In this document: positions 7,112 through 18,044 of the stretch, one piece after another | Numbering within the stretch: the first letter of the stretch is position 1 | How the letters are laid out: the number at the start of each line of letters is the position of its first letter | Assembly (NCBI GenBank): GCA_040882355.1 | Contig: JBBEBM010000030.1 | Span: 1 to 33,162, forward strand | Reading direction: 5' to 3' | Source: Dehalococcoidia bacterium | GTDB lineage: Bacteria; Chloroflexota; Dehalococcoidia; DSTF01; RBG-16-68-14 | DNA: 33,162 nt | Position numbers and translations under genes: made by a program | Notes under the pieces: model-generated | Told to the model about the DNA's origin: nothing | The model's database searches: none | What the model saw: the letters and a program-made list of their open reading frames with translations, nothing else

Positions 7112-7903
7112 TTACGTCCCGGGCACCTGGCGCGGGGCGACGCGCCATAGCTCCGGAGGGACGCCGTTGCGCACCATCAGGGCCCTTCCGGCCAGCGAGT
7201 CGTCCTTGATCAGCGAGACGACGGCGTCGGCGATCTCTTCCGGCGCGAGGATGGGCAGCGACGCCAGGCGGCTCGCGGTGGCCGAGCGCTCTTCGGCCGA
7301 GACGGCGTCGCTCGCCTGGCGGAGCATCGGGGTGTCGACGACACCTGGGCAGACGCAGTTCACGCGGATATTCGCCTCGGTCGCGAGCGGCGCCATCGAC
7401 GAGGTGAAGAGGACAACGCCGCCCTTGCTCGCAGCGTAGACGGGGTTGGGTGGAAAGCCGACGCCGATACCCGCCATCGACGCCGTGTTGACGATCGCGC
7501 CGCCGCCGCGCTTGCGCATCGCCTGGATGCCGTACTGCGTGCCGAGGATCACGCCGCGCAGGTTGATGTCGAGCATGCGCGACCAGGCCTCGGCGTCGCC
7601 TTCGGGGTAGCGCGGCTCGCGGGTGATGATGCCGGCGTTATTGTGGAGGATGTCCAGCCCGCCGAACGTCTCCCCCGCGAAGGCGACCATCGCCCTCACG
7701 TCGGCCTCGTTCGTGACGTCGGCGCGCACGAACGCCGCGCGAGCACCTGACGATTCGATCTGCGCCACGGTCTCGCGGCCGCCCCCCTCGTTCATGTCGA
7801 CGACGACGACAGCGGCACCCTCTGTCGCTAGCCGCAGCGCGGACGCGCGGCCGATGCCTGACCCAGCGCCCGTCACGAGCGCGACTTTGTTGGTGATATC
7901 CAT
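7112..7903 (-). CDS. Short-chain dehydrogenase/reductase (SDR)
   Basis: TGAGSGIG, NNAG, YAASK and VCPGVVDT motifs; start reassigned to ATG 7903 behind a GAAAGGA RBS. Confidence 0.93.
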   Translation of the reverse strand: MDITNKVALVTGAGSGIGRASALRLATEGAAVVVVDMNEGGGRETVAQIESSGARAAFVRADVTNEADVRAMVAFAGETFGGLDILHNNAGIITREPRYPEGDAEAWSRMLDINLRGVILGTQYGIQAMRKRGGGAIVNTASMAGIGVGFPPNPVYAASKGGVVLFTSSMAPLATEANIRVNCVCPGVVDTPMLRQASDAVSAEERSATASRLASLPILAPEEIADAVVSLIKDDSLAGRALMVRNGVPPELWRVAPRQVPGT

Positions 7904-8032
7904 CCGGTACGTTCCTTTCGTGCGCGGGTCCATCCTCGAAGGACTTATCTTATCTGAAATAGGGCGGCCACTCCTAAGCCACGCTGTCGCCAAGACGCGC
8001 GACACCCCGCCACGGGCCGGCCGCGGTCAAGG

Positions 8033-9108: not shown

Positions 9109-9287
9109 GAGCAGGGTGCTGAAGAACCACGTCTGCCTATCCCACCCGCCCGCCCAGGGAGGAATTGGGTGGGGGGGGGGGGGGGGGGGGGGGGGGNNNN
9201 NNNNNNCTGCGCCCCCCCCCCCCCCCCCCCGGCAGGGGCGCTGCGCCCCCTGCACCCCCGCTCTCTCCGCATTCTGCCAGCCTGCTG
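9109..9287 (+). repeat. MITE-like repeat family A copy containing an assembly gap
   Basis: gagcagggtgctgaagaa...cccacccgcccgcccagg...ggcaggggcgctgcgccccctgcaccccc...cagcctgct; Ns at 9197-9206 flanked by poly-G/poly-C. Confidence 0.75.
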
Positions 9288-9306: not shown

Positions 9307-9633
9307 CTACAGCCCTTCGCGGACGAGCTGGTCGACGCCGAACTCGAAGTAGGTGACGGCCTCCGAGAAGCCGAAGGTCTCGCGGTCCCAGTGCAGCGTC
9401 GGCTTGCCCTCCTCGTACTCGAGACGGGCGCCCAGACGAGGAAACATCATGACGCGCATGCGCCCAAGCATCCCTTCCAGCAGCTCGGGCTTGCGGCGCA
9501 GCAGCTCCTGATAGGCGGCGGCGACGCGCCGGACGACGTCGATGTAGTCGCCGGAACGGAGCGACTTGTGCGCGGCGGCCATCGACTCGCGCAGCGCCTC
9601 GTCCTGGATGCGATCGACTTTGGTAGTGGGCAT
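9307..9633 (-). CDS. Hypothetical protein (108 aa)
   Basis: Normal codon bias, starts 13 nt after the upstream stop codon; no recognised family. Confidence 0.7.
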   Translation of the reverse strand: MPTTKVDRIQDEALRESMAAAHKSLRSGDYIDVVRRVAAAYQELLRRKPELLEGMLGRMRVMMFPRLGARLEYEEGKPTLHWDRETFGFSEAVTYFEFGVDQLVREGL

Positions 9634-9646
9634 CTGCTCGGCTTCC

Positions 9647-10685
9647 CTACTGAGCGACGAAGTGATTGAGCGGCGGGTTGGCGCCTTCGCTCACGGTGAT
9701 GTACCCGCGGCCGTCCGAGTCGAAGGCGAGCGCCTCGCCCTGCGGCTCGATGACGGATGGCGCTTCGCAGGGGACGCCGGCGAGGGCCTCGGCCAGCGAC
9801 GCGCCCTCCGGCCTGTCCCACACCCAGACCGTGCCGTAGGTGCGGATCGCGACGGCGTCGCCAGCCGGCGACACGTCGCCGCCTGTCGGCAGAAACGGGG
9901 CGCCGCGCACGATGGCCGGCGCTTCGGCTGGAATGACGGCCTGGCTATCGAGCGCCGTGAAGTCGATCTCGCCGACCTGCTCCAGTGTCGCGGGCGCTGA
10001 GCCGTCGATCGTGCCGGGCGCGCGGAAGATGAGGGACGGCTGCACGAGCTCCTTCGTCACGATCACGATGTCACCACTCACCGGATCGACGAGCAGCGTC
10101 TCGGCATCGTGGGCGCGATCCGGGTAGCGCAACGTCAGCGCCTCGGCGTCAGGCACCTCCGCGGCGGTAGGCGTGCCGCCTGCAGAAACGGGCGGCTCAG
10201 GCACGCGGTAGACGACGACCTCGGGACGCGCGGCGCCGTTATCGCCCATGTCCGCGAGATAGAGGTACTGCACGCCTTCCTGCGGGCCGGGCCCCATCGC
10301 CATGTCCTCCCAGTCGGTCGCCTGCGCGCCCACAAGCGTGTACGTGCCGAGGTGGGCGCCGTCCGTGCCCATGGCGAAGACGCGGGCGCTATCGCCGCTG
10401 TCGTTGTGGGCCCAGAGCACGCCGTCCTGCCCCCAGCTGGCGGCGATGCCGGAGATCTCGACGAGGTCCGCCGACGCGACGGTAGCCAGTACCTCAGGAG
10501 TCGCGGCGCAGAGCGCGGCGGCTTGGCGGGCGGCGGCTTTGACTTCCTCCGGCTCNNNNNNNNNNGGGCGGCGGCGCCGCGGAGGTGGGCGCCGCGCTAT
10601 CGCCGTCGTCATCGTCGCAGGCGACGGCGAGCGCCAGCGCGAGCGCGGCGAAGAGCACGGCGAGGCGTGAGTATGTCACAGGCAT
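9647..10685 (-). CDS. Putative lipoprotein with beta-propeller-like (phytase/esterase-like) domain; frame interrupted by an assembly gap
   Basis: N-terminus MPVTYSRLAVLFAALALALAVAC (lipobox) at 10685; body EISG, WAHNDSG, DWEDMA, ADMGDN, DAETL, QGEALAF; frames differ only across the Ns at 10556-10565. Confidence 0.75.
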
Positions 10686-10722
10686 CGAGGGAGCAGTATA
10701 GCGGAGTCGGGTGCGAGGGGCG

Positions 10723-11982
10723 CTAGATCGACGAGTTCACCGGGTGCTCGATGCCGGCGAGCTGCTCATCGCGCCACTTCTGGTGCAGGTGATGGCGCTC
10801 CTTGAACTCCGGCAGCACCTTGGTGCCGAAGAGCTGGATCGACTCCATGATGTCCTCGTGCTTGCGGGCGCCCGACTGCGCCACGAAGATCATCGTGTCG
10901 AGGTGCGCGGCCTCGTACTTGAGCAGCGTGTCGCGGATGAACTCCGGCGTGCCGATGCAGCCGCCGCGCTTGGCGGCGCGCCAGAGGGCGCGGTGCACCT
11001 CGTTCTCCGGCTCTTCGTCGTCGTCGTTCGCGCCCAGGCTGCCGAAGCCGCCGAGACGGCGTCGCATGCCGAGAATCGCCATGCGCTCGTCGTCCGGCGT
11101 GTCCTTGAAGCGACGGTAAACGTTCGCGCGGCCGGGCGTGTGGTTCGGGCCGGTCAGCGGCGAGTAGTAGTAGCCGAGCGAGTAGCTGAAAAACTGGGTG
11201 CCCTCGACGCCCTTCTCGATCGCCTCCTCGTCCGTCGGGCAGCACATCAGCGACGAAAGCACGGCGAGCGCCGGGTTGATCGCGACGCCGATCGGCGTGC
11301 ACTCCTCGCGCACGAGCTCGAAGTACTGCTGGACGCGCTCGGTCGCCTCCTCAGGCGTCTCGAACGCGAAGCCGAGCGAGCCCATGCCGAGCCGCGCCGC
11401 GACCATCGTCGTCTCGCGGCGCGAGGACGCGACCCAGAGCGGCGGGTGCGGCTTCTGGAGCGGCTTGGGGATGACGTTGCGCTCCGGCATGCCGAAGTAG
11501 GCGCCCTCGTAGCCCGGGTAGGGCGTCTCGGTCATCATCCGTACGCATTGACGCGTCGCCTCTTCCCACATCAGCTTCTTTTCTTCGCGGTCGACGCCGA
11601 AGCCTCCGAGCTCCATCTCCGACGAGGACTCGCCGGTGCCGAACTCGACGCGGCCGTCCGAGACGAGGTCGAGCGTCGAGATGCGCTCGGCGACGCGGGC
11701 GGGGTGGTTGTAGCGGGGCGGCATGAGCGCGATGCCGTGGCCGAGCCGCATGTTCTTCGTGCGCTGGCTGGCGGCGGCGAGGAAGACCTCGGGCGCCGTT
11801 GAGTGGGCGTACTCCTCGAGGAAGTGGTGCTCGACCTCGAAGACGTAGTCGAAGCCGAGCTTGTCGGCGAGCTCGAGCTGATCGAGGGCGTCCTTGAGCA
11901 GCTTGTGCTCGGCGTCGGGGTCCCAGTCGTCCTTGTCGTAGGGCTTGGGGAGCTGGTGCTCGTAGAACAGTCCGAACTTCAT
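10723..11982 (-). CDS. LLM-class (luciferase-like) flavin-dependent oxidoreductase
   Basis: MKFGLFYE, EHHFLEEY, HPARVAERISTLDLVSDGRVEFGTG and PKPLQKPHPPLW motifs; ATGA overlap with the upstream gene. Confidence 0.92.
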   Translation of the reverse strand: MKFGLFYEHQLPKPYDKDDWDPDAEHKLLKDALDQLELADKLGFDYVFEVEHHFLEEYAHSTAPEVFLAAASQRTKNMRLGHGIALMPPRYNHPARVAERISTLDLVSDGRVEFGTGESSSEMELGGFGVDREEKKLMWEEATRQCVRMMTETPYPGYEGAYFGMPERNVIPKPLQKPHPPLWVASSRRETTMVAARLGMGSLGFAFETPEEATERVQQYFELVREECTPIGVAINPALAVLSSLMCCPTDEEAIEKGVEGTQFFSYSLGYYYSPLTGPNHTPGRANVYRRFKDTPDDERMAILGMRRRLGGFGSLGANDDDEEPENEVHRALWRAAKRGGCIGTPEFIRDTLLKYEAAHLDTMIFVAQSGARKHEDIMESIQLFGTKVLPEFKERHHLHQKWRDEQLAGIEHPVNSSI

Positions 11983-12422
11983 GGCGAACTTCCCTCCACC
12001 GGCCGCAGGACGACGACCGGGATCTCGCGCTCCGTCTCCTTCTGGTAGCCGTCGTAGCCCGCGTACAGCTCGACCGCCTTCGCCCAGAGACGCTCGCGGT
12101 CGGCGCCCGTCGCGGTCTCGGCGCGCACGCGCAGCTTCTTGCCCTTGAGCAGGACTTCGGCCTCCGGCTGCTTCTTCAAGTTGAGGTACCAGTTCGGGTG
12201 GGTGGCGTTACCACCGTTCGAGGCGATCACGACATACGCGCCGTCGTCCTCGAGGCAGGGCAGCGGCCTGGTGCGCGGGCGGCCGCTCTTGCGGCCCGTG
12301 GTCGTCAGCAGCAGCACCGGCGTGCCGATGACGTTGCCACCGATGAAGCCGCCCGACACGCGATAGAGGCAGAGGTGCATCGCCGACGTAAACCTGATCC
12401 AGAGCGGATTGACAGGCGGCAT
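11979..12422 (-). CDS. Deazaflavin (F420)-dependent nitroreductase family protein (Ddn-like)
   Basis: LLLTTTGRKSGRPR, ASNGG...PNWYLNL, YDGYQ and REIPVVVL motifs. Confidence 0.92.
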   Translation of the reverse strand: MPPVNPLWIRFTSAMHLCLYRVSGGFIGGNVIGTPVLLLTTTGRKSGRPRTRPLPCLEDDGAYVVIASNGGNATHPNWYLNLKKQPEAEVLLKGKKLRVRAETATGADRERLWAKAVELYAGYDGYQKETEREIPVVVLRPVEGSSP

Positions 12423-12427
12423 GGCGG

Positions 12428-12520
12428 GCTACCTTCCGCCGGTGACGCCGCCGGAGCGGATGAGCAGGTCTTCGAGATGCGCCTGCCAGTCGAGCGCCTC
12501 GCGGCGGCGCTCCGGCGTGG
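12428..12520. repeat. Direct repeat copy 1 (relic of the 3' end of the 14115..14732 gene)
   Basis: 90/93 nt identical to 14114-14206 by hand alignment. Confidence 0.95.
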
Positions 12521-12554
12521 GCCTGGGCGCCTCCACCGTGTAGCCGAACTTCAT
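12429..12554 (-). CDS. Chimeric 41-aa mini-ORF MKFGYTVEAPRPTPERRREALDWQAHLEDLLIRSGGVTGGR
   Basis: AAGGAG RBS 5 nt before ATG 12554; reads in frame into the duplicated gene end; stop lies 6 nt before the nitroreductase ATG. Confidence 0.5.
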   Translation of the reverse strand: MKFGYTVEAPRPTPERRREALDWQAHLEDLLIRSGGVTGGR

Positions 12555-12602
12555 GCTGGCTCCTTGGGAACTAGGAACAGGTCCGCGCGACTCGCGCCGC
12601 TC

Positions 12603-12611
12603 ATTCTAGCA
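12603..12611 (-). promoter_or_regulatory. Extended -10 promoter (TGcTAGAAT) facing the mini-ORF, nitroreductase and LLM genes
   Basis: Plus-strand attctagca = minus-strand TGCTAGAAT, about 50 nt upstream of ATG 12554. Confidence 0.5.
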
Positions 12612-12773
12612 CGTCGCGCGGTGGCCGACTGCATCGGCCACCGCGTGCTCTGGTAGATGAGATGGCGATAGCGAAGGGGGAACGGTCCTTCAGGTTCCAG
12701 ACTGGCGCCGCCTTGACACCGGCCGACGAATATGGCACAAATGTTTCAGGACGAGACATCCGAAGAGTGAGGT

Positions 12774-14096
12774 ATGTCCATGGACGGAGAACAGAGCGCC
12801 AATCAGGGCCAGGAGAGAGGAAATGGACTGGCCAGCACACCGGAAGACGCGGCTGGATCTACGGCTGCGGCTACCCTGGAACCTGAGGCCGATCCCTCAC
12901 CTCCTCGGGCGGCCAAGCCAAGGCGCGCCGCGAACAGGACGCGGGGTAGGCGCAAAGCCAAGAGTGGAACATCGCCATCCCGATCGCCTAAGAAAGGTCG
13001 GCGAACCTTCCCGGCATCGACATTTCAAGACGCGTTGGTCATCCCACAAGCCATACAGCAGATCGCGTCCGGACAGAAAATCCGCAGGCTGACCCTCTTC
13101 GAAAATCTCAACAAGTCGCCGGACAGCGGGCCGAGCCGCCAGCTCGTTACCAACGCAAACAAGTACGGCCTCATCACAGGTAACTACCAGTCCGAATGGC
13201 TCGAGCTGACTGCGGACGGTTCAGCTGCGACGAATGCTGATGCCACACCGGAACAGCGTCTACGTGCAAAGTTCAAGTTGGCGATTGAAAGCATACAGCC
13301 ATTCAACAGTCTCTACCAGCAGTACAAGGGAAACAAGGTTCCCGCTCAGTCGGTGATGCGTGATCACCTCACTGAGCAAGACCTCGGTGCGGATGTTAAC
13401 GAATCCGTGGACACCTTTATCGTCAACGCGAAAGACCTTGGCTTGCTTCGAACCATCGCGGGAGCCGAACGCATTCTTCCCATCGAGCAAATTATCGAGG
13501 AGCTGCCGAAGCCTGAGGCGCGACGCACCGCCTCTGAAGAATCAGTAGCCTCCGATGGTGGGAGTGCCGCAACGCCTGCCGTCGACGCCGACTGGTCAAA
13601 GGTGTGCTTCTACGTAACTCCGATCGGAGAGCCTGAATCTGAGGAGCGTAAGCACTCCGATCTGTTTCTCAGCTCAATCGTGGAACCAGCCATGGCGGAA
13701 TTCGGGATGACGGTCATCCGGGCGGATAATATTGGCAAGGCAGGAATGATCACCGCACAAGTCATTCAGCACGTGATTAACGCGGGGCTGGTGATCGCAG
13801 ACCTATCATTCCACAATCCGAACGTCTTCTATGAACTTTGCCTTCGCCACGCTTGCCGTCGCCCAACAGTTCAGTTGATTCGTCAGGCGGACCGTATCCC
13901 ATTCGACCTGGATCAATTTCGGACCATCGTCATTGACACCACCGACATCTATACGCTCGTTCCGCAGCTGGAAAGTTACAAGTCTGAGATCACCACCCAC
14001 GCCCGGCGTGCATTGGAAGATCCAAGCGTAGACAACCCCCTGACTATTTTCTGCCCGGGGCTCAGCGTATCCGTCCCCTTGGGTGAGACAGCCTAA
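12774..14096 (+). CDS. Inserted lower-GC protein: N-terminal winged-helix-like region plus C-terminal nucleoside 2-deoxyribosyltransferase/TIR-like domain; candidate defence protein
   Basis: C-terminal CFYVTPIG...IRAD...IADLSFHNPNVFYEL.LRH...IPFD; GAGGT before ATG; TTGACA at 12713; 27/60 GC at 13261-13320; antisense to the host operon. Confidence 0.75.
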   Translation: MSMDGEQSANQGQERGNGLASTPEDAAGSTAAATLEPEADPSPPRAAKPRRAANRTRGRRKAKSGTSPSRSPKKGRRTFPASTFQDALVIPQAIQQIASGQKIRRLTLFENLNKSPDSGPSRQLVTNANKYGLITGNYQSEWLELTADGSAATNADATPEQRLRAKFKLAIESIQPFNSLYQQYKGNKVPAQSVMRDHLTEQDLGADVNESVDTFIVNAKDLGLLRTIAGAERILPIEQIIEELPKPEARRTASEESVASDGGSAATPAVDADWSKVCFYVTPIGEPESEERKHSDLFLSSIVEPAMAEFGMTVIRADNIGKAGMITAQVIQHVINAGLVIADLSFHNPNVFYELCLRHACRRPTVQLIRQADRIPFDLDQFRTIVIDTTDIYTLVPQLESYKSEITTHARRALEDPSVDNPLTIFCPGLSVSVPLGETA

Positions 14097-14113
14097 CGGC
14101 TCAAGGGCGTTCC

Positions 14114-14206
14114 GCTACCTTCCGCCGGTGACGCCGCCGGAGCGGATGAGCAGGTCTTCGAGGTGCGCCTGCCAGTCGAGCGCTTCGTGGCGGCGCTCCG
14201 GCGTGG
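14114..14206. repeat. Direct repeat copy 2 (functional 3' end of the ferritin-like gene)
   Basis: Pairs with 12428-12520. Confidence 0.95.
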
Positions 14207-14732
14207 TCGCGAGCTCTTCGTAGATCGCCTGGCCCCACCTCAGGTGCTCCTCCTCCTCCAGCAGGATGTGGCGGAGGATGCGCACCGTCGGCGCGTCGCA
14301 GACCGGGTCGGTCACGAGCACATGGTGTCGATAGTAGACGGCGAGATGGGTCTTGAGCACACGGTACAGCCCGACGAGGCGCAGCAGCTCGTCGTCCTGG
14401 AGCTGCAGCTCCTCGCAGAACTTGAGGAAGTGCTCGTTCGGCGGCTCGGCCTTCGTCGAGGAGCGCAGCGTCGGCGGCGCTTCCGCCTGCATGCCTTCGA
14501 TGACGCGCAGCTCGGGCAGGCGCTGGCCGAGCCAGAACGAGTGGATCGAGTCGTGGTAGCAGTGCTCGCCCATCGTGAACTTGACCTTGATCGTCGGGCT
14601 GGTCGCGGCCCAGCCGCCCTCGGCCGTCATGCAGACGTTCTCGGCAAAGCGATAGTGGATCAGCCTGCGCGCGTTCTCGTCGACGGAGAAGGCGCCTCCT
14701 ACCTTGCGCGGGTCGTAGGCGAGCTCAAGCAT
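14115..14732 (-). CDS. Ferritin-like four-helix-bundle protein with degenerate diiron site
   Basis: Start reassigned to ATG 14732 (8-nt overlap with the ferredoxin stop); FAEN, HDSIH, VLKTH and EEEEH at ferritin-like spacing. Confidence 0.65.
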   Translation of the reverse strand: MLELAYDPRKVGGAFSVDENARRLIHYRFAENVCMTAEGGWAATSPTIKVKFTMGEHCYHDSIHSFWLGQRLPELRVIEGMQAEAPPTLRSSTKAEPPNEHFLKFCEELQLQDDELLRLVGLYRVLKTHLAVYYRHHVLVTDPVCDAPTVRILRHILLEEEEHLRWGQAIYEELATTPERRHEALDWQAHLEDLLIRSGGVTGGR

Positions 14733-15057
14733 GGCCGTTGCGCGAAGCGGAAGCCACCGCGGCGAGCGCCTTCCGCTTGCGCTCCGTCTTGATCGTGTTC
14801 TGTCTTCGCGCGAAGCCGCGCGCCTTGTCCTTCGCAACCTCGAGCTGAACGGTGTCGATCTTGTAGGCGGGGTCGGGGTCGATGCAGTCGACGGGGCAGA
14901 CCTTGACGCAGATGTCGCAGCCGATGCACCAGTCCGGATCCACGATGTGCGTGCGGTGGCCGGTCGAGAAGTAGTTGATCGCTTCGGTCGGGCAGGCCCG
15001 CCGGCAGAGGCTGCAGTTGATGCACCGCCTCAGGTCGATCTGGACGACGGTGATCAT
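14725..15057 (-). CDS. 2x[4Fe-4S] dicluster ferredoxin with basic C-terminal helix
   Basis: CINCSLCRRACP and CIGCDICVKVCP. Confidence 0.92.
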   Translation of the reverse strand: MITVVQIDLRRCINCSLCRRACPTEAINYFSTGHRTHIVDPDWCIGCDICVKVCPVDCIDPDPAYKIDTVQLEVAKDKARGFARRQNTIKTERKRKALAAVASASRNGHA

Positions 15058-15063
15058 GGGCGC

Positions 15064-15900
15064 CTAGTGGTAGGTGCCGCCTCCGCCGCCGACCGAGCCG
15101 CCGAGCGCGGCCGATGCGCGCTGCATCTCCTCGGCGAAGAACTCCTTCAGCTCCACCGTCTGCTCGGCGTTCAGGCGAACACGCGACATCTCGAAAAACG
15201 CGTGCGCGCGGAGCGCCTTGCGCTCGGCCTCCGGGTCGTCTTCGGTGAGCAGCTTGACGAAGTAGTCGCCGATGGCGGCGTGGGTGACCTCGTCCGCCCA
15301 GTTGTAGTCGTAGCAATGCTCGAGCAGCGGGTCGCCGATGCGCTCGCCCAGCTCGGACGTCTCCTTGAACGCGATGAGCGCGCCGCCCTCGAGCGAGACG
15401 TTGATCATGGAGAGGCTCGCGACCGGGTCGCGGAAGAAGCCTTCGGCGGCCTGCATGGCGGGGCTGTTCTGCTGGATAGTGGCGGGCCCGCCGCCGCCGG
15501 CGAGCGTGTCCGGGTAGTCGCCGATCTCGCCGCCGTACTCCTCGATGACGCCGGTGGCGAGCTGCGCGTGGCGCACTTCGTCCCAGGTCTGGCGGGCCAT
15601 CGCCATCACCAGGCTCCACGGCACGTCCCAGTCCTGCCACTCGACGACTTTCCGGCTGAAGGCGTCGATGCCGGCGTACTCGGCGCTGGCGATGCTGCTG
15701 ACGAGCGCCTTGCGGAACTCGATGTTCTCCGGGTCGGTCTGCACCATCTCGCGCATCTGGGTGAGATCGATGTAGTTCGCGGCGTCGCCCAGCTTGCGCT
15801 CGAGCTCGGCGCGCTCGGTCTCGTCGATGCCGGCGAACGGGCGATAGGGCGGGTTGCGTCGCGAGGGGGACTCTTTGATGTGGTCGGCGAGCTTGGACAT
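15064..15900 (-). CDS. Ferritin-like diiron-carboxylate protein (DUF455-like)
   Basis: Start reassigned to ATG 15900 (AAAGGAG RBS); SAEY...WDEVRH...SLEG...ADEVTH gives a complete E/ExxH/E/ExxH set. Confidence 0.8.
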   Translation of the reverse strand: MSKLADHIKESPSRRNPPYRPFAGIDETERAELERKLGDAANYIDLTQMREMVQTDPENIEFRKALVSSIASAEYAGIDAFSRKVVEWQDWDVPWSLVMAMARQTWDEVRHAQLATGVIEEYGGEIGDYPDTLAGGGGPATIQQNSPAMQAAEGFFRDPVASLSMINVSLEGGALIAFKETSELGERIGDPLLEHCYDYNWADEVTHAAIGDYFVKLLTEDDPEAERKALRAHAFFEMSRVRLNAEQTVELKEFFAEEMQRASAALGGSVGGGGGTYH

Positions 15901-15934
15901 GGCTGGAGCTCCTTTCCCCTTTGGGGCGAGGGCG

Positions 15935-15986
15935 TTGACAGATGCGTCCACCGGCAAGTATAGGGTGCCCCTACCGTTCGCGTCAA
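15935..15986. promoter_or_regulatory. Overlapping divergent sigma70-type promoters
   Basis: Plus strand: TTGACA(15935-40)-N18-TATAGG(15959-64). Minus strand: TTGACG(15986-81)-N18-TATACT(15962-57). Confidence 0.6.
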
Positions 15987-16118
15987 GGTAAAGGGTCTTG
16001 CGCCGGATGGCCCGGCCGTGCGACACTGGCCGCGCCGGCTGAAGGGCTGTCCACCGGCGAGACCAGCAAGGGGCTTCACACCTCTCCCCTGAGAGGACCG
16101 ATGAGGAGGCGGCAGGCC

Positions 16119-17078
16119 ATGGCGACGATCCGAATCGCGACCTTCAACGCGGAAAACCTCTTCGCGCGTTACAAGTTCAACTCGAACGTCGACCCGGCGG
16201 CAGCCGTGCGCGACGGCTGGAACGCCGACGCGCGGCACTTCGATATCTCGGACGAGCCGAGCAAGACGATCACCGCCCGGGCGATCAAGGAGCTGAAAGC
16301 CGACGTGATCGCCCTGCAGGAGATCGAGAACCTCGATACGCTGAAACGCTTCCGCAGCGGGTTCCTGGGCGGCTTCAAGGCCTACCCGCATGCCGTGGCC
16401 ATCGACGGCAACGACCCGCGGCTGATCGACGTGGCGGTGCTCAGCCGCCTGCCGCTGGTGAACATCCGCACGCATCAACACCTGCGCGACGGACCGACAG
16501 CGCTCTTCTCGCGCGACTGCCTGGAGCTGGACGTCGTCGTGTCGCCGAGCAAGACGGTGACGCTTTATGTCAATCACTTGAAGTCGATGCTCGACAAGAA
16601 GGACGCCTGCCACGGGCGGGCCAAGACGCGCGCCAAACGCCTGAAGCAAGCGCAAGCGGTGAAGCAGATCGTGATCGACAGGTTCGGCCAGCAGGCCGGC
16701 CGGCAACCGTTCATCATTCTGGGCGACCTGAACGACTACCTCGCAACGGACGTGCAGGGCACGACCGGCATCGATGATCTCGCCGGCTGGGACCAGGTGG
16801 TGAACGTGGTCGACAGGCTGCCCGAGGCTGACCGCTGGACGCACTTCTTCAAGGGGAGGTCGAGCCGGGCGTGCAAGCTGCCGGCGGGCTACCACCAGCT
16901 TGACTACCTGCTCGTCTCCAAGTCGCTCGCGGCGGCGACGGCGCGCGTGCCGGAGATCGAGCGGCGCGGCATGCCCACGCGCGCCGACCGGTTCACGGGC
17001 GCTCGCTTCCCCGGCGTCGGCAAGAACGAGCCGAAGGCATCAGACCACTGCCCGGTGGTGATGCAGTTGACGGTCTAG
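16119..17078 (+). CDS. Endonuclease/exonuclease/phosphatase family protein
   Basis: ATFNAENLF, DVIALQEIE, VNHLKS, LGDLND, QLDYLL and ASDHCP motifs; start reassigned to ATG 16119 behind GAGGAGG. Confidence 0.9.
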   Translation: MATIRIATFNAENLFARYKFNSNVDPAAAVRDGWNADARHFDISDEPSKTITARAIKELKADVIALQEIENLDTLKRFRSGFLGGFKAYPHAVAIDGNDPRLIDVAVLSRLPLVNIRTHQHLRDGPTALFSRDCLELDVVVSPSKTVTLYVNHLKSMLDKKDACHGRAKTRAKRLKQAQAVKQIVIDRFGQQAGRQPFIILGDLNDYLATDVQGTTGIDDLAGWDQVVNVVDRLPEADRWTHFFKGRSSRACKLPAGYHQLDYLLVSKSLAAATARVPEIERRGMPTRADRFTGARFPGVGKNEPKASDHCPVVMQLTV

Positions 17079-17195: not shown

Positions 17196-18044
17196 ATGGG
17201 CAAGCTGGACGGCAAGGTCGTGATCGTCACCGGCGCGAGCCGGGGCATCGGCGCGGAGATCGCCACGATCTTCGCCGCGGAGGGCGGCAAGGTCGTCGTC
17301 GCCGCGCGCACGCTGCGTGAGGGCGAGCACCAGTTCGCCGGCTCGCTGGAGACGACGGTCGCCGGGATCCACAAGGCCGGCGGCGAGGCGACGCCGGTCG
17401 CCGCGAACATCTCGGAGCCGGAGGACTGCGAGCGGCTGGTGCAGGCCGCGCGCGACACCTACGGCCCGGTCGACGTGATGGTGAACAACGCCGCCCTCAC
17501 CTACTTCATCCCGGTGAAGGACTATCCAGTGAACAAGTGGCTGCGCTCGTGGGCGGTCAACTTCCACGCGCCCTTCATCCTGAGCCAGCTCGTCCTGCAG
17601 GACATGGTCGAGCGCGGCAGCGGCAGCATCGTCAACATCTCGTCCGGCGCGGCGATCGGCCCGGGCCGCGGCCCCTACCCGAACGCCGTCCCGCTGGGCG
17701 GCGGCACCTGCTACGGCGCGGAGAAGGCGGCGCTGGAACGGTTCACACAGGGGCTCGCGGCCGAGGTCTACCGCTCCGGCGTCTCCGTCACCTGCGTCTC
17801 GCCTTCGCAGGTCGTGCCGACGCCGGGCACCGTCCACCACCGGCTGGTGCGCGGGCTCGACGACCCGCGCGGCGAGCCGCCCGAGCTGATGGCGAAGGCC
17901 GCGCTGCTGCTGGCGACGGAGCCGCTGGACAAGGTGACGGGGCGGGTCACCTACAGCCAGGAGATCCTGAAGGAGTTCGGCTGGATCGACGAGGCGAAGG
18001 GGATCGGCATCGACATGAAGGGGAGCGGCTACAGCCTGATCTAG
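17196..18044 (+). CDS. Short-chain dehydrogenase/reductase (SDR)
   Basis: TGASRGIG, VNNAA, VNISS and YGAEK motifs; AGGAGG RBS. Confidence 0.92.
   Translation: MGKLDGKVVIVTGASRGIGAEIATIFAAEGGKVVVAARTLREGEHQFAGSLETTVAGIHKAGGEATPVAANISEPEDCERLVQAARDTYGPVDVMVNNAALTYFIPVKDYPVNKWLRSWAVNFHAPFILSQLVLQDMVERGSGSIVNISSGAAIGPGRGPYPNAVPLGGGTCYGAEKAALERFTQGLAAEVYRSGVSVTCVSPSQVVPTPGTVHHRLVRGLDDPRGEPPELMAKAALLLATEPLDKVTGRVTYSQEILKEFGWIDEAKGIGIDMKGSGYSLI

Follow-up and report, generated by a model that had tools for sequence, protein, structure and literature searches.

Which enzyme might be assembled from two small ferritin-like proteins whose genes flank that of a ferredoxin? The question is raised by the window analyzed here, a 33,162-nucleotide stretch of DNA from a Dehalococcoidia bacterium (GenBank assembly GCA_040882355.1, contig JBBEBM010000030.1, positions 1 to 33,162). 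Its reverse strand encodes a 278-residue ferritin-like diiron subunit (A, 15064-15900), a 110-residue 2x[4Fe-4S] ferredoxin whose C-terminal tail is basic (Fdx, 14725-15057), and a 205-residue ferritin-like partner with an altered site (C, 14115-14732). The trio is most likely a conserved, uncharacterized three-component diiron system, a DUF455-based variant of the multicomponent ferritin-like oxygenases. A preliminary description of this DNA had proposed an operon of ferritin-like A, dicluster ferredoxin, and altered C, and all the features it described were found at the positions given, accurate to the residue.

A Conserved Three-gene Operon

The three genes are translationally coupled. A gap of 6 nucleotides separates the TAG stop of gene A from the ATG of Fdx, and the Fdx stop and the ATG of gene C overlap by 8 nucleotides (ATGCTTGA). 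The ATG of gene A at 15900 is preceded by a Shine-Dalgarno-like GGAAAGGAG. Further upstream lies a candidate promoter (TTGACG-18 nucleotides-TATACT; 15957..15986, reverse strand), the 3' edge of which is 57 nucleotides before this ATG. It matches the sigma-70 consensus at 10 of 12 positions and is the only such site in 10600-16200, where shuffled sequences contain an average of 0.6.

A scan for the locus, taking one genome per species, returned 50 loci. The order A-Fdx-C on one strand was found in all 42 loci in which 1100 bp or more of sequence lie downstream of A; the preliminary description had proposed co-occurrence and neighborhood conservation as a check of its operon, and the trio is thus conserved as a unit with Fdx always between A and C. 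The trio is not a chance arrangement, because A has 437 homologues and C matches 576 cluster representatives (both at E ≤ 0.001) in addition to this constant gene order.

Ligand Set and Family of Subunit A

Subunit A carries the motifs E74, D107-E108-V-R110-H111, E171, and D203-E204-V-T-H207. All 62 relatives that were aligned, among them 39 fusion proteins (described below), share this full diiron ligand set without change, together with R110 and D203. The structure model of A is a helical bundle with a predicted local distance difference test (pLDDT) score of 85.3. Aligned with ferritin-like chains it gave Z-scores of 12-16, and with this fold and the E/ExxH/E/ExxH pattern A has the defining features of the four-helix diiron-carboxylate superfamily.

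The better of the only two Pfam matches of A was to DUF455 (PF04305), at 31.8 bits (E 1.4e-7) over model positions 43-217 of 247, the gathering threshold of this family being 34.3 bits. A second sub-threshold match was to Phenol_Hydrox (20.1 bits, E 5.4e-4, cut-off 24.4). No NCBIfam model was matched at E ≤ 0.01. Among the best 120 of the 437 homologues, identity to A was 59-94%, the organisms, where named, were nearly all Chloroflexota or Dehalococcoidia metagenome-assembled genomes (MAGs), and 104 carried a precomputed PF04305 label. The ESM Atlas clusters nearest A are also DUF455, with Actinomycetota and Rokubacteria clusters among the neighbors. On these matches we treat A as a divergent member of DUF455 that scores just under the Pfam cut-off, and not as a protein without a family.

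In one genome of the same taxonomic order (G536:C117:19500-20384), the orthologue of A is present as two adjacent pieces, covering residues 1-149 and 137-275, and is possibly frameshifted or split.

An Altered but Conserved Site in Subunit C

The site of C reads E31, D61-S-I-H64, K127, and E160-E-E-H163, so that lysine replaces the third glutamate and the first ExxH has become DxxH. The preliminary description had treated C as a degenerate subunit. This proved too simple. Five of the six ligand positions are kept and are invariant across 41 C orthologues, in which E31, H57, D61, H64, K127, H129, E159-E161, and H163 never vary. The wider C family keeps the site in part: of 81 sequences, 50 have lysine at position 127 and 29 have histidine at position 163. 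In every one of the 41 loci in which all three genes are at least 75% covered (within L002-L051), C is more similar to the window protein than A is. The median identities to the window proteins in these loci are 77.8% for C, 64.5% for A, and 55.9%, the lowest value, for Fdx. Judged by this pattern of residues, C appears to be altered, not dead.

No Pfam or NCBIfam family was found for C, and the ESM Atlas clusters near it are from Actinomycetota. Standalone C and standalone A were not significantly related by hhalign (probability 0.56%, E 0.1), and the same alignment was in register at the metal site, pairing D61xxH64 with E108xxH111, K127 with E171, and E160xxH163 with E204xxH207.

A bolder reading of C, to which we attach little probability, is that it is a second functional center rather than a dead scaffold. 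Its metal site would be mononuclear or unusual in some other way, with Lys127 replacing the second metal, and it would gate electrons from Fdx or bind substrate. On this proposal A-Fdx-C would found a new class of DUF455-based heterodimeric diiron oxygenases. In aerobic Dehalococcoidia the enzyme would start the oxidation of a recalcitrant hydrophobic compound, to be continued by the neighboring short-chain dehydrogenase (SDR) and luciferase-like monooxygenase (LLM).

Predicted Association of A with C

Three lines of evidence suggest that A and C very probably form a heterodimer: the existence of fusions between C-like and DUF455 sequences, a model of the complex, and the likeness of the C fold to T4moH beta and PaaC. 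Of the best 150 relatives of C, 45 are at least 400 residues long. All 10 of the long relatives scanned have an N-terminal C-like part and a C-terminal DUF455 part, and in 9 of them the latter exceeds the Pfam cut-off; fused relatives score up to 108 bits against DUF455. The DUF455 half retains E, ExRH, E, and DExxH without exception in 39 of 39 fusions. Longer forms of A (488-2000 residues) were absent at E ≤ 1e-5, which is weak evidence.

The model of the A+C complex had an interaction prediction score from aligned errors (ipSAE) of 0.64 (0.60-0.69 in three runs), whereas the best of three controls scored 0.00. The runs had 96% or more of the contacts in common, and the pLDDT of the partner was at least 90. 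Of 157 solved complexes 116 attained that mark, and of 215 mismatched pairs 2 did, a calibration that is rough here since custom alignments were used; the two alignments also share fusion sequences. In the predicted interface, the N-terminal arm of A (residues 3-16) and its ligand-bearing helices (75-116) face helices 1-2 of C (35-66). The pairing of an active with an altered ferritin-like subunit, as put forward in the preliminary description, is thus supported by the model and by the fusions found elsewhere.

The fused forms, which are 20-29% identical to A, were found in sugar-utilization loci. Four loci have in common a GH106 rhamnosidase, a PF04115 protein, the fusion, and a Zn-dependent dehydrogenase, and other fusion loci carry GFO/IDH/MocA, xylose-isomerase-like barrel, or ROK proteins. 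No neighboring ferredoxin was present at the fusion loci examined. The fused branch in rhamnosidase clusters may be a branch that acts on sugars. Because fusions occur in sugar loci and clusters occur in other lineages, the pair of C and DUF455 appears to be a general scaffold put to different substrates, of which the split form with a dicluster ferredoxin would be the Dehalococcoidia variant.

Fusions of 454-475 residues stand beside a GH106 alpha-L-rhamnosidase-like gene and a PF04115 gene in L055, L056, and L057 (metagenome) and in L067 (G330:C73); the flanks of L055 and L067, which were scanned, contain Zn-dependent dehydrogenase or ABC sugar permease genes. In L071 (G131:C18:1-4892, Chloroflexota), a C-like reading frame of 174 residues at the contig start (E 2e-13 to C) is followed by two tandem standalone DUF455 genes (272 and 259 residues) and an ABC transporter. 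By its gene content L071 looks like a third arrangement of the same parts.

Fold Comparisons

Searches of Pfam, NCBIfam, PDB sequences, and folds left A and C outside the characterized families PaaA/C, BoxB, MiaE, AurF, and aldehyde-deformylating oxygenase (ADO), as the preliminary description had supposed. At E ≤ 0.01, neither protein matched a Pfam or NCBIfam model of BoxB, MiaE, AurF/CmlI, ADO, rubrerythrin, or ferritin, nor a Pfam model of the Coq7 or desaturase families. A single-sequence search of the PDB with A found spurious designed-repeat proteins only, and with C it found no match. Foldseek, which had been proposed as a check on both subunits, identified the general ferritin-like fold and no PDB chain at E ≤ 0.001.

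The structure of C was modeled with higher confidence than that of A (pLDDT 92.0). Its top Foldseek matches were to the metal-free beta subunit of toluene 4-monooxygenase, T4moH beta (template-modeling (TM) scores 0.72-0.74), led by 3dhg_B (E 1.3e-3, TM score 0.72), and PaaC stood lower in the list (TM score 0.58-0.59). An exhaustive structural search placed C in the ferritin-like fold with Z-scores of up to 18.3. The full-length matches were to an ADO-like protein (Z 18.3, 170 residues), ToMO beta (Z 16.3, 185 residues), phenol hydroxylase beta, R2lox, and PaaC (Z 14.7, 164 residues). The longest structural alignments of A were to ADO-like proteins, PaaA (Z 12.8, 174 residues), the VlmB homologue 6d9f, and R2lox. 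The two proteins thus share their fold class with the alpha/beta pairs of oxygenases.

A profile of A searched against the PDB matched R2lox best (E about 1e-6 to 5e-8), followed by bacterioferritin and archaeal R2lox. The match to 6d9f (E 3.8e-5) covered nearly the whole domain, and weak matches were obtained to acyl-acyl carrier protein (ACP) desaturases and ToMO alpha. These matches indicate membership of the ferritin-like superfamily and of no specific family within it. VlmB was considered as a possible relative and was rejected, being a distant structural neighbor only.

Could A and C instead serve in oxidative stress or iron handling? They would then be a rubrerythrin- or bacterioferritin-like peroxidase or ferroxidase, with Fdx as reductant or as a Bfd-like iron-release partner, under MarR/OhrR-type control. 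The highest Z-scores of A were to four-helix-core proteins, namely the Dps-like PA4880 (Z 15.8 over 143 residues), thioferritin, and bacterioferritins, and bacterioferritin profiles were matched at E 5e-6 to 1e-3. A divergent MarR gene lies upstream in 19 of 40 loci, and the module is single-copy and highly conserved. However, these structural alignments span 143-154 residues, that is, the four-helix core only, and leave about 110 residues of A unaccounted for. Along its full length C can be aligned with subunits of the oxygenase type, and a heterodimer with an altered partner is an oxygenase architecture, not that of the 12- or 24-mer cages. The Rubrerythrin and Ferritin models are unmatched (above), and the recurrent neighbors are metabolic enzymes. 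We regard a role in stress or iron handling as unlikely.

The Ferredoxin and the Proposed Reaction

Fdx contains two CxxCxxCxxxCP motifs followed by a tail rich in lysine and arginine. It matches the Pfam families Fer4 and Fer4_21 and, below cut-off, RnfB/RsxB-like NCBIfam models. An alignment of 34 sequences showed that both cysteine motifs are kept, with little conservation in the tail. In a fungal ESM Atlas cluster, 97% of 62 members combine DUF455 with a Rieske Fe-S domain, which hints independently that iron-sulfur partners supply electrons to DUF455 domains.

We consider it moderately probable that A-Fdx-C is a ferredoxin-driven heterodimeric diiron oxidase or oxygenase. In such an enzyme A would hold a carboxylate-bridged diiron site. 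C, a paralogue-like partner of ferritin fold, would pack its helices 1-2 on the ligand helices of A and be clasped by the N-terminal arm of A. The dedicated Fdx would pass single electrons to A and so reduce its diferric site, and the reduced site would activate O2 for the oxidation of an organic substrate by hydroxylation, desaturation, or epoxidation. The organism probably meets O2, as its genome encodes heme-copper oxidase subunit I. One possible route would lead from the hydroxylase to a dehydrogenase and then to an LLM acting on a ketone, with no need for F420. The recurrent LLM, SDR, acyl-CoA dehydrogenase, and divergent MarR genes (described below) point weakly to an inducible catabolic pathway whose substrate would be hydrophobic or of the acyl type. 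Our confidence in any given substrate class is much lower than in the general mechanism.

Several observations weigh against an oxygenase of this kind. Foldseek with the A model found nothing in the PDB at E ≤ 0.001, and its matches to oxygenases had E-values of 0.019 or worse; indeed, all fold and profile matches of A and C to oxygenases are weak. The highest structural Z-scores of A are to Dps-like and bacterioferritin proteins, though over the core only. The greater conservation of C than of A is not what would be expected if C served structure alone. Neither a flavin reductase that could feed electrons to Fdx nor an effector protein was conserved nearby among the proteins scanned (10 from the window and 18 representatives of recurrent neighbors, from reading frames of at least 70 residues). 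The LLM gene is missing from about half of the loci. Finally, the sugar loci lack a ferredoxin, and for the wider family both the acyl or hydrophobic substrate and the need for a dedicated ferredoxin would fail.

Distribution and Neighboring Genes

In a sample of 401 genomes from the phylum, a close match was found only in the genome of the window itself; distant matches, with 27-34% identity and lying in long open frames, were obtained in 10 more. Among 401 genomes sampled from the class there were 26 matches at E ≤ 1e-30. They include 12 of 13 genomes of one sister family within the same taxonomic order, and both tallies include genome G602. The sample held one further genome from the family of the window, and it gave no match. 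A and C are each present in single copy in the genome of the window, and neither gave a tblastn match in the plasmid collection.

The trio is invariant and its flanks vary. In 18 of 35 loci an LLM gene follows within 800 bp of C. An SDR gene (at least 35% identity, typically about 50%) lies no more than 5 kb downstream of C in 11 of the 26 loci with room for it, and an acyl-CoA dehydrogenase gene in 11 of 26. A cruder clustering found CoA-transferase III in 5 loci and P450 in 3. The SDR gene of the window (7112..8005, reverse strand), assigned from its TGxxxGIG motif and its likeness to the adh_short protein at 17196-18044, belongs to this recurrent group.

An alternative suggested by the distribution is that the enzyme is a housekeeping biosynthetic hydroxylase or desaturase of a lipid, quinone, cofactor, or tRNA, in the manner of Coq7, MiaE, or acyl-ACP desaturase, and that its neighbors are incidental. 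Ferredoxin-dependent soluble desaturases and ADO are precedents for such a role. The presence in 12 of 13 genomes of one sister family, the single copy, the very high conservation (median 77.8% for C), the invariance of the trio alone, and the weak profile matches to acyl-ACP desaturases are in its favor. Nevertheless, the occurrence is patchy (26 of 401 class genomes, and absent from the one other genome sampled from the family of the window), the cluster of divergent MarR with LLM, SDR, and acyl-CoA dehydrogenase resembles an inducible catabolic island, and A and C match no MiaE, Coq7, or desaturase family. We therefore think a housekeeping role rather improbable.

A 108-residue reading frame on the reverse strand of the window (9307-9633), which has no Pfam family, recurs shortly after the LLM gene in L015, L016, and L044. 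Runs of 10 N are present at 9197-9206 and 10556-10565, one of them inside a 321-residue reading frame (9647-10612) downstream of the LLM gene.

A Gene Inserted Downstream of C

The window contains a direct repeat, 12428-12533 against 14114-14219, with 92% identity over 106 nucleotides; the first 93 nucleotides are identical at 90 positions, after which the likeness decays. The right copy (14114..14219) is the true 3' end of gene C. The left copy lies in a remnant reading frame on the reverse strand (12428..12555) that ends in the last 40 residues of C, and its stop is 5 nucleotides from the start of a gene for a Ddn-like protein. A whole-genome search likewise identified 12432-12548 as residues 166-205 of C (77% identity, E 2.9e-12). 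The remnant starts with MKFGY, like the N terminus of the downstream LLM (MKFGLFY), before it continues into the copy of the C-terminal 40 residues of C.

The segment between the repeats (12534..14113, 1.58 kb) is low in guanine plus cytosine, the fraction being 0.55 in 13001-14000 and about 0.66-0.70 around it, and splits the old operon. It contains a forward-strand gene (12774-14096) for a 440-residue protein without a Pfam match, whose C-terminal domain is TIR-like (PADLOC TIR effector, E 1.8e-8) and matches phrog_3634, a phage family, at E 1.2e-40. This is possibly a defense gene that landed in the operon.

Both junctions of the segment are bridged by contigs of the public run X1, and the right junction also by those of X3, two of four runs from one sediment study. 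No convincing case of the insertion-free form was found in contigs of these four runs. A joint of 12455 to 14212 in X3 was considered as such a form and discarded, having 20 letters on its shorter side and being out of register with the repeat.

The preliminary description had read the duplicated gene end at 12428 as a former direct junction of C with the Ddn and LLM genes. That reading holds up, because the remnant stop is 5 nucleotides from the Ddn start and because C, Ddn, and LLM are contiguous in another MAG (L003). The operon thus appears once to have run A-Fdx-C-Ddn-LLM and to have been split by a foreign gene, with gene C staying whole.

The Ddn-like and LLM Genes

The Ddn-like gene (11979..12422, reverse strand) encodes a 147-residue protein of the F420H2-dependent quinone reductase family (PF04075, E 1.7e-41; TIGR00026 above cut-off). 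It abuts the LLM gene (10723..11982, reverse strand), whose product of 419 residues matches PF00296 at E 2.3e-41. Of the 18 LLMs found after C in other loci, 5 are 79-86% identical to that of the window and 13 are 42-51% identical. The family and structure matches of the LLM mix flavin mononucleotide (FMN)-type with F420-type enzymes, all below curated cut-offs, so that its cofactor class is ambiguous. As a conjecture, the LLM could be a Baeyer-Villiger-type enzyme. The genome probably makes F420, as suggested by two CofD matches above cut-off.

The preliminary description had joined the trio to F420/LLM partners and had suggested that it might be fed by F420H2. The partnership stands in part. 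An LLM gene follows C in about half of the loci and the former C-Ddn-LLM junction is preserved as a remnant, but only 1 of 35 other loci has a Ddn-like gene after C. By these counts Ddn would be accessory rather than core, and LLM a frequent accessory. In the strongest form of the proposal, an F420H2-fed oxygenase pathway, Ddn and LLM would be obligate partners that supply or use reduced F420. The remnant, the C-Ddn-LLM order kept in L003, and the two CofD matches are consistent with it. Against this, the partner genes are too often missing, the LLM matches do not single out F420, and no enzyme coupling F420H2 to ferredoxin was present among the scanned neighbors. We judge such a pathway very improbable.

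Comparison with Known Systems

DUF455 is a widespread ferritin-like family, present in bacteria, fungi, and plants, with no known function or assigned reaction. No functional study of DUF455, PF04305, or COG2833 was found in literature seen mostly at the level of titles and abstracts, and the searches made did not uncover a DUF455 protein that is paired with both a C-type partner and a ferredoxin of its own. The module gives this family a concrete setting, with a defined partner and electron donor, all three components being small, soluble, and directly testable. If active, it would represent a new architecture among the multicomponent diiron oxygenases and would give uncultured aerobic Dehalococcoidia another route against unreactive organic matter. 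The lysine-for-glutamate site in the most conserved subunit would then pose a new problem of metal-site design.

BioE, a ferritin-like diiron oxygenase that is a dimer and is described as cleaving acyl-CoA/ACP (PMC12704756), shows chemistry that is open to such proteins; A and BioE are likened here by description, not by sequence. VlmB is described in reviews as an AurF-like or heme-oxygenase-like diiron oxidase (PMC2922099, PMC11705231). The best profile and structural neighbors of the module, R2lox, the VlmB homologue 6d9f, and ADO-like proteins, have sequence identities of 7-19%. The R2lox, VlmB-type, and ADO-type oxidases and BioE are not known to depend on an altered partner subunit or on a dicluster ferredoxin encoded for them alone.

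BoxAB is a diiron oxygenase of an aerobic pathway that is fed through two [4Fe-4S] clusters. In BoxA, however, the clusters lie within a flavoprotein reductase and BoxB is one large subunit, whereas the module has a separate ferredoxin and two small subunits.

The closest parallels are found in systems that pair two ferritin-like subunits. PaaA/PaaC, like the module, combines a catalytic diiron subunit with a ferritin-like partner whose metal site is incomplete, and PaaA can be aligned structurally with A and PaaC with C (above). Unlike PaaA and PaaC, A and C have no PF05138 match and no NCBIfam PaaA/PaaC match at E ≤ 0.01, and no paaB, paaD, or paaE was present among the scanned proteins. The donor in PaaABCDE is a flavin/[2Fe-2S] reductase and here a free 2x[4Fe-4S] ferredoxin, and C keeps five of six ligand positions. 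The bacterial multicomponent monooxygenases share with the module an alpha/beta pair of active and metal-free ferritin-fold subunits, and the DE-x-RH motif is found in A. Their subunits are about 500 and 300-390 residues long, compared with 278 and 205 residues here, and A scores below the cut-off of the alpha-subunit model Phenol_Hydrox (PF02332). No MmoB/DmpM-type effector, gamma subunit, Rieske ferredoxin, or NADH reductase was conserved among the scanned neighbors. Because the family models are unmatched or below cut-off and the defining accessory genes are not in the conserved neighborhood, the module belongs to neither group; by analogy, it would work like the PaaA/PaaC pair and the alpha/beta cores of the multicomponent monooxygenases.

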